Shown here in pieces: positions 1 through 57,352 of a stretch of 57,516 bases of DNA. The stretch covers positions 1-57,516 of the forward strand of contig CAINNR010000008.1 of the NCBI GenBank assembly GCA_903851235.1, read 5' to 3'. The position numbers and the translations under genes are program-made. Position 1 is the first letter of the stretch. Each line of letters starts with the position of its first letter. Origin of the DNA: an uncultured Candidatus Berkelbacteria bacterium. Its GTDB lineage: Bacteria > Patescibacteriota > UBA1384 > XYA2-FULL-43-10 > CAINNR01. The notes under the pieces were generated by a model. It searched no databases, was not told the DNA's origin, and saw nothing but the letters and a program-made list of their open reading frames with translations.

Positions 1-276
1 AGCTTCGGCACCAGTGAAATACCACTCTTCTACTTTCTGGCTTCTAACCCCCCGACCTGAATCGATCGGGAGAGACAGTATCTGATGGGTAGTTTAACTG
101 GGGCGGTTGCCTCCTAAATTGTAACGGAGGCGTTCAAAGGTACACTTACTCCGGATGGAAATCGGAGTGAAAGTATAAAAGCATAAGTGTGCTTGACTGT
201 GAGACTTACAAGTCGAACAGGTGGGAAACCAGGATTTAGTGATCCGGTCCGTATTTATGATAATCGGACCGCTCAT

Positions 277-310
<34 letters not shown>

Positions 311-418
311 TGCATCCAATAGACCACATAGACGATGCAGTTTGGCACCTCGATGTCGGCTCGTCCTATCCTGGGGCTGAAGAAGGTCCCAAGGGTTTGG
401 CTGTTCGCCAATTAAAAG

Positions 419-454
<36 letters not shown>

Positions 455-760
455 AGAGTATGTGCTGTCTATAAATTTGGCTATATGCTGGGAACTCTGT
501 AGTCCTAATAGGACTTGTAGAATCTGGTGATACTTTGTAATAGAAAAGTATGTTGCAAAGTGAGAATTCATCCAGTGCAGACAATCAGCAGGAAAGACTT
601 CAATTAACATATTGAAGAATCCTCAACGACTACACGCCAAAAACCGATTAATGTCGGTTAAGATATAGTCTAAACTGCATAGCGATATGCAGAGTCCGAT
701 TCGCATCGGACCGCCACAGATAAATTTCAGAAATTGACGTGGTTATCAAGTAATAGATTG
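455..760 (+). ncRNA. Group I intron 1 in 23S rRNA (after E. coli-equivalent U2604), 306 nt, no ORF
   Basis: Exon ends in U454 and intron ends in G760; P1 AGACAGT(448-454)/GCTGTCT(464-470) with U.G at the splice site; core elements P ATGCTGGGAAC, Q AATCAGCAGG, R CCTCAACGACTA, S AAGATATAGTC; P3 TTTGGC/GCCAAA. Confidence 0.92.
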
Positions 761-811
761 TCGGTCCTAATCTGCTGTAGGCGTAAAAATTTGAGTGGGT
801 CTGTCCCTAGT

Positions 812-1258
812 AAATTTTTGCTACTTCATAAAGTAATTTATGATGACAAATCGGCTAATAACGGTGAAACCTTTAGAATTTTTGGTCCGTTGATAACTAT
901 TTTGCACTTCGGTCCCGCAAAATAGTACAATATACTTGAGGACCAAAATGAATAAAGGCAATATCGTGGGAAGTCGGTCTAAAAATGATTTTGCTGAACC
1001 AAAAATCATACAAACTTTTCTCATTGGAAGAAAAATGTTTGTTAATAAGCGCAATTCTTGCGATTCAGAATAATAACTATAACTCTGTCCATAAAAAGTG
1101 CAAGCGTGAACTTATTAAAATTTTAGACTTGACCCCGTAACGACTGAGGCTTAAACGCCAAGACTTCAGGTGAAATCTGAGGTAATACGCCGACTCCGTA
1201 ATAGGTTAAGCTAACGGAGAAGATATAGTCTGCGCTCTTAGTGATAAGAGAATAAGCG
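812..1258 (+). ncRNA. Group I intron 2 in 23S rRNA (after E. coli-equivalent U2656, sarcin-ricin loop), 447 nt, IA-like, no long ORF
   Basis: Removing it restores CCTAGT-ACGAGAGGACC; exon ends in U811 and intron ends in G1258; P1 TAGT/GCTA(820-823) with U.G; P GCTAATAACGGTGAAAC, Q AATATCGTGGGAAG, R GTAACGACTGA, S AAGATATAGTC; P7.1/P7.2-type hairpins between R and P3' (GCCGA). Confidence 0.9.
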
Positions 1259-1291
<33 letters not shown>

Positions 1292-1582
1292 GCCAGTTGG
1301 GTGAATCTCACCCATTGCTGGGTAGCCACGTTCGGTTCGGATAAATGCTGAAAGCATATAAGCGTGAAGCCGGCCACAAGATTAGATTTTTGATCCCCAG
1401 TAGACTACTGGGTTGATAGGCTCTAGGTGTAAGACCAGCGATGGTTGTAGCCGTGGAGTACTAATTGATCATTCTGACTTTAACTTTTTATCTCACAACA
1501 AAGTGAGGTTGCTTTGACTAGCGATTACTGACTAAAAATATTTACTATATTTATTTGTTTGAGCTTATAAAATATAGTATTG

Positions 1583-1701
1583 TGTTGGTGCTTATAGCGA
1601 AGTGGGTACACCTCTTCCCATTCCGAACAGAGTCGTTAAGCACTTCAGCCCCGATGGTACTCGGACCGCGAGGTCCCGGGAGAGTAGGACAGCGCCAACA
1701 C
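1583..1701 (+). rRNA. rrf: 5S rRNA
   Basis: Terminal helix TGTTGGTG/CGCCAACA; conserved CCCATTCCGAAC, GTTAAGC, CGATGGTACT, GGAGAGTAGG. Confidence 0.96.
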
Positions 1702-4307: not shown

Positions 4308-5180
4308 ATGCCAGAGTTACCGGAAGTTGAAACAATAAGACTGGGTTTGAAGAAAGCGATCGTTGGCAAAACGATCGCTGGTGTTGATGTTCGCGTGCCG
4401 AAACTTTTTCATGGCGACAAAAAATCTATCATTGGGAAAAAAGTTTTGGATGTAGGTCGTCGGGCTAAGCAAATTATTATCGATGTTGAAGGCGACAATG
4501 ATCTACTTATCCATCTAAAGATGACCGGACAGTTGATATACAGACCAAAGCAGGAATCAGGGGTTGCAAGTCATGGACAGATAGCCGGTGGGCACCCAAG
4601 TAAGGACTGGACAGCAGTTTTGCCGAACGGAACGACTCACATCATTTTCGATTTTTCCGATGGCTCAAAACTGTTTTTTAACGATCTGCGAAAGTTTGGT
4701 TGGATAAAAATATTTGAGGCAAAAGAGCTAAAGCACAAATTGACCGAAGAACTTGGCGTCGAACCATTTGACAAGGAATTTACAACCGATGAATTGGCAA
4801 AGATTATTTCGAAAAAATCAAATTGGAATATTAAAAAAATACTGACCGATCAAACTTTAATTTCCGGCATCGGTAATATTTATGCCGACGAATCATTGTT
4901 TTGGGCCGGGATTTTACCGACCAGGATTGCCAAAACAATAAAGTATGACGAAGTATTACGACTTCATACTTCCATCATCAAGGCGCTCCAAATTGGTTTG
5001 AAATATGGCGGTTCATCAGAAAACACCTACTACAAAATCGATGGCGCAAAGGGTCAGGCGCAGGAACATTTTCAAGTTTACGCCCAAGAAGGAAAAAAGT
5101 GCAAACGATGCGGTGGTGTAATTCAAAAAATTAAATTAAACGGTCGCGGAACACATTTTTGTCCAGGTTGTCAGAAATAA
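4308..5180 (+). CDS. mutM: Formamidopyrimidine-DNA glycosylase
   Basis: N-terminal MPELPEVE, HLKMTG, GIGNIYADE, C-terminal zinc finger CKRCG...GRGTHFCPGCQ. Confidence 0.97.
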   Translation: MPELPEVETIRLGLKKAIVGKTIAGVDVRVPKLFHGDKKSIIGKKVLDVGRRAKQIIIDVEGDNDLLIHLKMTGQLIYRPKQESGVASHGQIAGGHPSKDWTAVLPNGTTHIIFDFSDGSKLFFNDLRKFGWIKIFEAKELKHKLTEELGVEPFDKEFTTDELAKIISKKSNWNIKKILTDQTLISGIGNIYADESLFWAGILPTRIAKTIKYDEVLRLHTSIIKALQIGLKYGGSSENTYYKIDGAKGQAQEHFQVYAQEGKKCKRCGGVIQKIKLNGRGTHFCPGCQK

Positions 5181-5242
5181 ACTATTGAATAGTTTTCAAA
5201 ACGCTGTTATACTCTATCCATCCTGTCCGACGGAGGCAATAT

Positions 5243-5449
5243 ATGGCTAGCCGAGGCTACGGCCCGCTTGTGGCCGGTTGGGTTTCAACAATTTTCAGTC
5301 AACCGCTAAATGTCAGTAGTGGTCGTCGGTGTCCAGAATCGATTACTAGTCAATTGACCGACGATTTGCTTCCTGTTGCCGACCGGGATGTTAGTAAAAC
5401 CGATCCGGTTACAGAAATAGCACTCGCAGAAGTTATAAATCAACTTTAA
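5243..5449 (+). CDS. Small hypothetical protein with own promoter and terminator
   Basis: TTGAAT-N17-TATACT (5185-5213), GGAGG RBS, hairpin plus T-tract at ~5452-5482. Confidence 0.6.
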   Translation: MASRGYGPLVAGWVSTIFSQPLNVSSGRRCPESITSQLTDDLLPVADRDVSKTDPVTEIALAEVINQL

Positions 5450-5495
5450 TCCACGCCACAGCGATAAGCTGGGCGTTTTTTGTTATACTGATTTT

Positions 5496-6236
5496 ATGCA
5501 TTTAAAAACACAAGGCATTGTAATCAAGCGAATGAATTTTGGCGAGGCCGATAGAATTCTGACGATTTTAACCGAGAGTCAGGGGAAAATTAAGGCAATC
5601 GCTAAAGGTTCGCGCAAAATTTTGGCGAAACTTGGCGGCTCACTGGAGCCGTTTTGTTTAGTCGACTTTATTTTTCATGAAGGCAAAAGTTTCTACATTG
5701 TAACGTCAGCAGTTGTCATCAAACATTTTGAAAAAATCCATACCGACATTGACAAAACTTCAAAAGCATTTTACATCGGCGAGCTACTGGACAAGTTTAT
5801 AGAAGTCGGTCAAAAACATCCGGAGGTTTTCCATCTATTTGCGAAATATTTAGAAAATTTAGAAAATGCCGACGACAAAATTTTAATTCCGGTTTTTTCA
5901 GCCAAGATATTGGAAGCACTCGGTTTCAAACCGGTAACATCGGAGTGTTTGCATTGTCGAAATAAGTTAGTACCAGAGCAGAATTTTTGGGATGACATTG
6001 AAGGTGGTGTAATTTGTCAAAAGTGTCATGATAAATTCGGTCATGGAAAAGAGATTTCAAATGATGTGATAAAAATTTTGCGGCTGGTTTTTTCGTCGGA
6101 GTTTAGTCTTGGCTCGAAAATTAACATTAATGACAAATACAAAAACCAAACCGCCGCGGTTTTGGAGAGTTATATTGAAGGCATTATCGAACGTGAGCTA
6201 AAAAGCAAAAAATTTATGAAAGATATCTGCAGTTGA
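5496..6236 (+). CDS. recO: DNA repair protein RecO
   Basis: GEADRILTILT...GKIKAIAKG N-terminal OB motif; CLHC...GGVICQKC zinc finger. Confidence 0.95.
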   Translation: MHLKTQGIVIKRMNFGEADRILTILTESQGKIKAIAKGSRKILAKLGGSLEPFCLVDFIFHEGKSFYIVTSAVVIKHFEKIHTDIDKTSKAFYIGELLDKFIEVGQKHPEVFHLFAKYLENLENADDKILIPVFSAKILEALGFKPVTSECLHCRNKLVPEQNFWDDIEGGVICQKCHDKFGHGKEISNDVIKILRLVFSSEFSLGSKININDKYKNQTAAVLESYIEGIIERELKSKKFMKDICS

Positions 6237-56741: not shown

Positions 56742-56817
56742 GCCCAGATAGCTCAGTTGGTAGAGCAACTCCATGGTAAGGAGTAGGTCGTCGGTTCAAG
56801 TCCGATTCTGGGCTCCA
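56742..56817 (+). tRNA. tRNA-Thr(GGT)
   Basis: Cloverleaf GCCCAGA...ATGGTAA...GGTTCAAGTCC...TCTGGGCTCCA. Confidence 0.96.
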
Positions 56818-56837
56818 TGATAAATTTAAGATTATTT

Positions 56838-56923
56838 GCTGGGATAGCGAAGTGGTCAAACGCATTAGACTGTAAATCTAACGGCTTACGCCTTCGTAGG
56901 TTCGAGTCCTACTCCCAGCACCA
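56838..56923 (+). tRNA. tRNA-Tyr(GTA)
   Basis: Cloverleaf with long variable arm, loop CTGTAAA, CCA end. Confidence 0.96.
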
Positions 56924-56925
56924 TT

Positions 56926-57001
56926 GCCGATATAGCTCAGTTGGTAGAGCAACACTTTTGTAAAGTGAAGGTCGTGGGTTCGAATCCCTCTATCGGCTCC
57001 A
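56926..57001 (+). tRNA. tRNA-Thr(TGT)
   Basis: GCCGATA acceptor stem, loop TTTGTAA, GGTTCGAATCC, CCA end. Confidence 0.94.
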
Positions 57002-57060
57002 TACCACCAAAATTGGCTCGGAAACACTATGTTTAAAGAAAAAACTAAGAAAGGATATTT

Positions 57061-57222
57061 ATGGCAAAAGACGCACGGACGATTGTAACTTTGGAGTGTG
57101 AAGTCTGCAAAGAGCGAAATTATCAGACCGAAAAAAACACCAAACTTCAAAAAGAACGGTTGCAACTTTCAAAATATTGCAAACGATGCAAAAAACAAAC
57201 TTTGCACAAAGAAGCGAAATAG
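57061..57222 (+). CDS. rpmG: 50S ribosomal protein L33 (zinc-binding form); not in the supplied ORF track
   Basis: Manual translation [26 protein letters not shown]...[18 protein letters not shown]. Confidence 0.96.
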
Positions 57223-57278
57223 TGGACAGAGATATTTCATAGAGATTATCAAGGATCAAAATATCTGGGTTTTAGCAT

Positions 57279-57352
57279 AGGAGCTTAATTTAAAGGTAAA
57301 ATACCTCTCTCCAAAAGAGGCTATAGGGGTTCGATTCCTCTAGCTCCTGCCA
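57279..57352 (+). tRNA. tRNA-Trp(CCA)
   Basis: AGGAGCT/AGCTCCT acceptor stem, CCTCT-CTCCAAA-AGAGG anticodon arm, CCA end. Confidence 0.94.

Follow-up and report, generated by a model that had tools for sequence, protein, structure and literature searches.

The 23S rRNA gene at the beginning of the window (the whole stretch of 57,516 nucleotides analysed here, a contig of an uncultured Candidatus Berkelbacteria bacterium) is interrupted twice near its 3' end, and the second insert cuts the sarcin-ricin loop (SRL). This locus raises the question of what the second insert is, and whether the gene that carries it could still give a working rRNA. Judged from its site, fold and homologues, the segment 812-1258 is with high probability an IA-type group I intron at the SRL position L2656 of a CPR 23S rRNA gene, derived by deletion of its endonuclease gene, and we infer that it still splices.

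By alignment with rrlH of E. coli MG1655, the 447-nt insert was found to be located between U2656 and A2657, in agreement with the earlier note, which had described the SRL as split after U2656. Excision of 812-1258 gives back AGUACGAGAGGACC, and the first base of the SRL motif AGTACGAGAGGACC corresponds to E. coli 2654. The exon blocks are colinear with rrlH, 1-454 reaching up to U2604, 761-811 covering 2605-2656 and 1259-1486 covering 2657-2904. As A stands at both 812 and 1259, the DNA alone would allow the splice boundary to be shifted by one A; following the group I rules (5' exon ending in U, intron ending in G), the junctions 811/812 and 1258/1259 were chosen. The Rfam LSU model spans 1-475 and 1233-1472. 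Of the 23S gene the window covers the 3' ~750 nt, and any further rrn copy would lie outside it; the gene is arranged as follows.

1-454, forward strand: 23S rRNA exon equivalent to E. coli ~2135-2604, incomplete at its 5' side since the window starts within the gene (Rfam LSU_rRNA_bacteria, 432 bits; E. coli alignment)
455-760, forward strand: upstream group I intron at L2604 (U2604/U2605), ORF-less, without P7.1/P7.2 (Rfam Intron_gpI, 75.9 bits, above the gathering score)
761-811, forward strand: 51-nt exon, E. coli 2605-2656, H94 plus the 5' half of H95/SRL, 3' end ..CCCTAGT (E. coli alignment; intron-less contigs)
812-1258, forward strand: probable IA-like group I intron at L2656 that has lost its endonuclease gene by deletion (Rfam, homologue alignment, covariation, MFE)
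1259-1486, forward strand: 23S 3' exon beginning ACGAGAGGACC, E. coli 2657-2904 (Rfam LSU, 146.7 bits; E. coli alignment)
1584-1700, forward strand: 5S rRNA gene (Rfam, 95 bits)

The exons are 97-99% identical to those of locus L037, from a MAG with the depositor's label Berkelbacteria, and this identity, which makes the host a near relation of that MAG, is the basis for assigning it to CPR. The 51-nt exon between two introns, to which the note had drawn attention, is real, and it is colinear in intron-less contigs.

Relatives of the L2656 intron were collected by scanning GTDB species representatives for G+ACGAGAGGACCGGNNTGGAC. The 52 loci obtained consist of 31 with an intron of the same type at the same junction, 9 uninterrupted 23S genes with G2656 and 12 chance non-rRNA matches; the catalogue of L2656 insertions asked for previously thus contains 31 family members among GTDB species representatives. 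Full-length members are all preceded by C(C/T)TAGT, and the other 27 of them (27/27) end in G before ACGAGAGG, a regularity that is not independent evidence, as the scan pattern demanded the terminal G. In the window, the 5' exon ends in U811, which is wobble-paired to G820 in P1, and this U.G pair is present in 22/22 members aligned; the intron terminates in G1258 (omega G). P10 consists of at most 1 bp.

The Rfam group I model RF00028 aligns to 801-1251 over its whole length, giving 22.4 bits (E = 0.0026, 861-nt search) against a gathering score of 50 bits. Since the score lies below gathering, the intron is missed by a default Rfam scan, and a scan of the whole window at the gathering threshold indeed called only the upstream intron. 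The low score is due to insertions of ~260 nt in P5, P6 and J7/3, the core being undamaged; the compact 359-nt family member L038 scores 58 bits, above the gathering score.

The core fold was examined by covariation in 22 members, which were trimmed by hand of variable periphery at sequence anchors and aligned as mini-introns (alignment A2, MAFFT). L047 and five members with long P9 extensions were excluded from this set; trimming was needed because P9 extensions upset the MAFFT alignment when the untrimmed last 175 nt are used. In this alignment, 56 pairs form ten helices (P1, P2, P3, P4, P5, P6, P7, P8, P9.0 and P9). Paired cells amounted to 89.7%, compared with 34.6-44.1% when the 3' partners were slid; as the structure was written from the window sequence and trimming was chosen by anchors, the paired percentage is somewhat inflated, and it is this inflation that the slid controls address. 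Both-sided changes were observed at 28/56 pairs, and the covariation score of 0.402 (slid controls, at most 0.110) was reached by 0/500 shuffles. The elements of the fold are as follows.

808-823, forward strand: P1, exon UAGU 808-811 plus AA 812-813 with the internal guide UUGCUA 818-823, U811.G820 at the 5' splice site (helix 97.7% paired)
826-843, forward strand: P2 hairpin, 7 bp, GUAA (GNRA) loop (compensatory changes at 7/7 pairs; MFE)
851-855, forward strand: P3 5' strand, partner 1189-1193 (double changes at 3 pairs; MFE)
861-865/963-967, within 861-967, forward strand: P4 (100% paired)
870-875/953-958, within 861-967, forward strand: P5 (5 covarying pairs)
880-888/940-948 and 897-905/917-925, forward strand: P5 extension, P5a and P5b respectively (MFE; L037 without P5b)
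968-1135, forward strand: P6, 968-975 with 1126-1135, enclosing the P6 extension (helix 89.8% paired; GGG/CCC invariant)
1140-1145, forward strand: P7 5' strand, A1140, bulged C1141 and G1142-U1145 (5 pairs invariant in 22/22)
1146-1183, forward strand: P7.1 (1148-1150/1157-1159) and P7.2 (1163-1169/1177-1183) (MFE; family-wide hairpins)
1189-1193, forward strand: P3 3' strand (covariation alignment)
1195-1218, forward strand: P8 hairpin, formed by 1195-1199/1214-1218 and 3 bp further in (67% paired, covariation at 3 pairs; MFE)
1219-1231, forward strand: J8/7 and P7 3' strand (GAAGAUAU plus AGUCU), the best conserved core motif of group I introns (Rfam consensus match; family-invariant)
1232-1258, forward strand: P9.0 (1232-1233/1256-1257), P9 (1235-1240/1245-1250, GUGA loop; 5 covarying pairs) and G1258

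P9.0, just upstream of the terminal G, is paired in 22/22 members, with compensatory changes at both pairs. P8 reaches only 67%, as the members are loosely aligned by MAFFT in that region. P7 is without variation across the 22 members, as is the GGG/CCC of P6, so that covariation is silent on both, speaking neither for nor against them; invariance is usual for P7. The conserved core from P3 to P9, including the P3/P7 pseudoknot, was thus found in the window, with P7 itself invariant. Unconstrained MFE folding of the window intron recovered P2, P3, P4, P5, P8 and P9 exactly, and added P5a/P5b, P7.1 and P7.2. The window retains each position that does not vary among the 22 aligned cores; the sole departure of its core from the consensus is a C-to-U change in P4, which turns a G-C pair into G.U. 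These observations of core, U.G pair, terminal G and covariation support the earlier identification of a group I intron at L2656. From the arrangement in other group I introns, we infer that the G1142-C1230 pair, next to the bulged C1141, is the guanosine-binding pair. As a separate observation, a conserved (C/U)GGUC(C/U) in the P5b loop (907-915) has its complement in the GGACC that forms part of the conserved CUUGAGGACC on the 3' side of P5a (935-945), which hints at a tertiary contact or at a second way of pairing.

Subgroup IA is recognised by a pair of extra hairpins, P7.1 and P7.2, that separate P7 from P3. Two hairpins were found at this place in all 28 full-length members (three in L029), those of the window lying at 1148-1159 and 1163-1183. 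By these hairpins the L2656 intron would be classified as IA-like; the same assignment had been made before from the sequence, and the MFE fold together with the hairpins of 28/28 members bears it out. In the L2604 intron P7 leads directly to P3 with no insert between, in keeping with the earlier statement that the two introns belong to different subclasses.

What remains of a reading frame in the L2656 intron was examined against its closest relatives, which are the introns of L037 (6841-7559; Berkelbacteria MAG LacPavin_0419_WC70L_MAG_40_9) and L028 (3604-4374, minus strand). Both agree with the window in every base of the last 46 nt and in their junctions, and both are likewise twinned with an intron at L2604. 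They differ from it in carrying an intact ORF of ~159-190 aa, classified as Pfam LAGLIDADG_1. An ORF of ~150-200 aa with the motif AYIAGFLDGDGS is present in 21/27 of the other full-length members, so that the search for orthologous introns with LAGLIDADG ORFs, which had been recommended, was successful. In the insert of the window, no ORF longer than 77 aa was found and the ORF fragments gave no Pfam match; both the absence of an ORF and the presence of structured peripheral extensions had been described correctly. By alignment with the L037 and L028 introns, 305 nt were found to be missing from the window as a single gap after ~991, and by tblastn the endonuclease residues left are only 1-10 and 111-159, in two different frames.

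966-991, forward strand: what is left of the N-terminal part of the LAGLIDADG gene, beginning with GTG at 966 (3' strand of P4), ..GSRSKND, deletion point at ~991 (L037/L028 alignment; tblastn residues 1-10)
992-1140, forward strand: C-terminal remnant ..EEKCLLISAILAIQNNNYNSVHKKCKRELIKILDLTP*, out of frame with the N-terminal remnant, TAA at 1138-1140 in J6/7 (tblastn residues 111-159)

The C-terminal remnant, lying in ORF 985-1140 and ending ..ILDLTP, shows 73% identity (tblastn, E = 1e-22). Together the remnants preserve 10 N-terminal and 49 C-terminal codons of a LAGLIDADG_1 gene, which close relatives carry intact; ~100 codons were removed and the frame was shifted, and the LAGLIDADG motif and most of the endonuclease fold are absent. 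The AT-rich P6 extension is, on this comparison, evidently the wreck of a LAGLIDADG homing-endonuclease gene. The P5 extension is ordinary variable periphery and not a coding remnant, P5b being absent from L037, and L028 carrying an additional hairpin of 20 nt. The suggestion that the extensions are eroded endonuclease remnants was therefore right for P6, where residues 1-10 and 111-159 are kept, and wrong for P5. Identity to the L037 and L028 introns is 94-97% in the core, compared with 80-82% in the endonuclease remnant. As the invariant positions are kept, with the single G-C to G.U change, and as the core is better preserved than the remnant, the ribozyme appears to be constrained.

The nearest solved relatives of the L037/L028 endonuclease are I-MsoI, I-CreI and I-CvuI (E = 1e-10 to 1e-26 for L037), all of which are single-domain homodimeric enzymes. 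The chloroplast intron Cr.LSU, which encodes I-CreI, resembles the L2656 family in that it, too, is of group I, lies in domain V/VI of 23S and carries a single-domain homodimeric LAGLIDADG enzyme; the I-CreI ORF lies in a peripheral loop, and its intron is of IA type. Cr.LSU differs in its site (L2593, not 2656), in its host compartment and in the low protein identity, and the window copy has no ORF. In the window and in family loci, the endonuclease ORF was observed to overlap the ribozyme core: it begins with a GTG on the 3' side of P4 and stops within J6/7. Owing to this overlap, the conserved ..GSRS.. and ..LDLTP* codons double as P6 strands. A second subfamily (L018, L033, L035 and L039) reads the core GTCCCCGTAACGACT in another frame, as VPVTT.

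JGI metagenome contigs were then scanned with a lineage-specific 5' exon sequence. Five contigs (L054, L056, L057, L058 and L059) have exons 97-99% identical to those of the window, with both introns precisely absent. They are colinear with 1-454, 761-811 and 1259-1488, and the straight run through 454/761 and 811/1259 indicates that both inserts are exactly missing there. In these close relatives, the homing sites are empty. Their similarity to the window was seen to stop soon 3' of the 5S gene.

A survey of 348 CPR 23S genes has described fourteen frequent insertion sites (Tsurumaki et al. 2024, J Bacteriol, PMC11270868). Three of these, 23IS12-14 at positions 2593, 2604 and 2657, hold group I-like insertions with LAGLIDADG_1 as the predominant ORF; 222 group I introns in CPR 23S genes were ORF-less, and group I introns at 2604 and 2657 had been unreported in known bacteria before that survey (PMC11270868). 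Position 2657 of 23IS14 equals L2656 within the one-A ambiguity, just as position 1952 of the survey equals classical L1951, and 23IS13 at 2604 corresponds to the first intron of the window. The L2656 insert resembles 23IS14 in gene, site and group I-like nature, ORF-less versions being common there, and it has the features of that class: an insertion of at least 100 bp, group I-like, at 23S position 2657, in a CPR host by exon identity. The earlier note did not, with reserve, count the site among the commonly cited LSU intron sites, which is right in so far as it is absent from classical lists, but it is catalogued now; novelty of the site thus fails, since 2657 and 2604 are both listed as frequent CPR group I/LAGLIDADG_1 sites (PMC11270868). 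Beyond this survey, no paper in the literature collection searched names the L2656 site. The survey gives positions and counts, whereas the present analysis adds a secondary-structure model, a subclass and a deletion derivative.

The life cycle of homing endonucleases is described by Goddard and Burt (1999) and Burt and Koufopanou (2004), as cited in PMC11270868. Its states are all represented among close relatives here, namely the empty site (L054 and L056-L059), the intron with endonuclease gene (L037 and L028) and the intron with a degenerate gene (the window). The pattern of presence and absence is consistent with the usual succession of homing, decay of the endonuclease and loss of the intron, although the order of gain and loss is deduced from the pattern. 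For the field this changes little, as the abundance of group I introns in CPR rRNA genes is well known and the site is already listed. The locus offers a clean worked example of endonuclease decay, with three states among near-identical rRNA genes, and it adds a secondary-structure model for the 2657-site family, which PMC11270868 lacks. It is also a reminder that such introns escape the Rfam gathering threshold, and that the SRL then looks broken in automated 23S annotation.

If the IA-type intron is active, its core would fold within the pre-23S RNA, and P1 would join the exon UAGU to the guide GCUA, so placing the U2656.G wobble at the 5' splice site. An external guanosine bound by P7 would attack the 5' splice site; G1258, held by P9.0 and P9, would then replace it, and the 3'-OH of U2656 would attack the 3' splice site, ligating the exons and restoring AGUACGAGAGGACC. 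The family would spread by a single-domain LAGLIDADG homing endonuclease of the I-CreI/I-MsoI type encoded in the P6 loop. Owing to the 305-nt deletion with its frame shift, the window intron could presumably not home by itself, and it would persist only since the ribozyme must still splice for a working ribosome.

The destroyed endonuclease gene and the Rfam score under the gathering threshold would also be expected of a dead intron, sitting in an inactive or decaying rRNA gene copy with a ribozyme that no longer splices and a 23S that goes unused. Such decay is very unlikely, because the core keeps every family-invariant position with a single G-C to G.U change in P4 and is far closer to its relatives than the remnant is. 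The exons, too, are 97-99% identical to those of intron-less relatives, the 5S gene follows normally, and CPR genomes usually have a single rrn copy (PMC11270868). Removal could also proceed without ligation, RNase III or another nuclease cutting out the insert as an intervening sequence and leaving a fragmented 23S; insertions of this fragmenting type are known in bacterial 23S and have been suggested for some CPR insertions elsewhere (PMC11270868). The sites so suggested (23IS2 and 23IS4) lie, however, in helices tolerant of expansion and not in an invariant loop, and cutting the RNA between U2656 and A2657 would leave the SRL itself in two pieces. As the ends of the insert form no long terminal stem, and as it shows the marks of a group I intron (conserved core, U.G pair, P9.0, terminal G), fragmentation seems extremely improbable.

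Metagenome rRNA regions are prone to chimeras, and an assembly artefact, with the insert absent from the organism, has to be weighed on that account. This is hardly conceivable when the same intron stands at the same junction in 31 independent assemblies, when two of the assemblies share with the window a core identity of 94-97% and identical junctions, and when the deletion end-points lie within one continuous homologous alignment. In a wider reading, the L2656 introns would be one IA lineage moved between CPR and non-CPR phyla, with an endonuclease gene dual-coded with the ribozyme core; splicing would be an obligate late step that keeps the pre-50S silent, its GTPase-activating loop being severed, and together with the L2604 intron there would be a fixed order of removal around the 51-nt exon. 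We regard this combination as improbable as a whole. The splicing order of the two introns and splicing as a checkpoint in 50S maturation, both raised in the earlier note, are speculation. The reading of 812-1258 as an IA-type intron derived by endonuclease deletion is the one preferred here.

The upstream L2604 intron is precisely missing in the five intron-less contigs, and the homologous site carries in L028 an intron of 830 nt with a 194-aa ORF (sequence containing Ns) and in L037 one of 667 nt with no long ORF. Since the L2604 intron of the window is an ORF-less mini version and its L028 homologue has the 194-aa ORF, both introns of the gene have lost their endonuclease genes. An exon of 51-52 nt between L2604 and L2656 introns was also observed in L028, L032, L037 and L052. 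L037 carries in addition a third insertion of ~980 nt (4801-5780) at ~E. coli 2262, with a 234-aa ORF; it is absent from the window (112/113), the flanking exons being 97-99% identical.

Several observations concern the distribution of the family. Seven L2656 introns (L005, L025, L027, L028, L031, L032 and L051), most with an intact LAGLIDADG ORF, were found in MAGs labelled Candidatus Saccharibacteria, in contrast to the survey, in which Saccharibacteria rRNA genes had almost no group I introns or endonuclease genes (PMC11270868); the discrepancy reflects either unreliable labels or binning, or differing sampling. Members were also found, unlike in the survey, in MAGs labelled Chloroflexota, Acidobacteriota and Desulfobacterales. 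The deposited non-CPR labels are Chloroflexia, Anaerolineae, Acidobacteriota, Desulfobacterales and Mycoplasmatales (L026, L035, L038, L039, L041, L049 and L013), and the introns of these loci have a higher G+C (0.43-0.52).

U at 2656 is universally conserved. About nine loci with uninterrupted 23S have G in its place (..CCCTAGGACGAGAGG; L003, L010, L023, L024, L030, L036, L045 and L053), mostly in MAGs labelled Alphaproteobacteria or proteobacterium and in one labelled Vicinamibacteria; G2656 may be genuine variation of the SRL, or it may stem from an error that recurs systematically in assembly. Elsewhere in the window, a cluster of four tRNA genes was detected by Rfam scan near its end (56742-57349), and the segment 2244-5526 is 100% identical to the ENA contig ERZ18626762 (BUCK21-1 scaffold_33491, L060), indicating that the same organism has been assembled independently.
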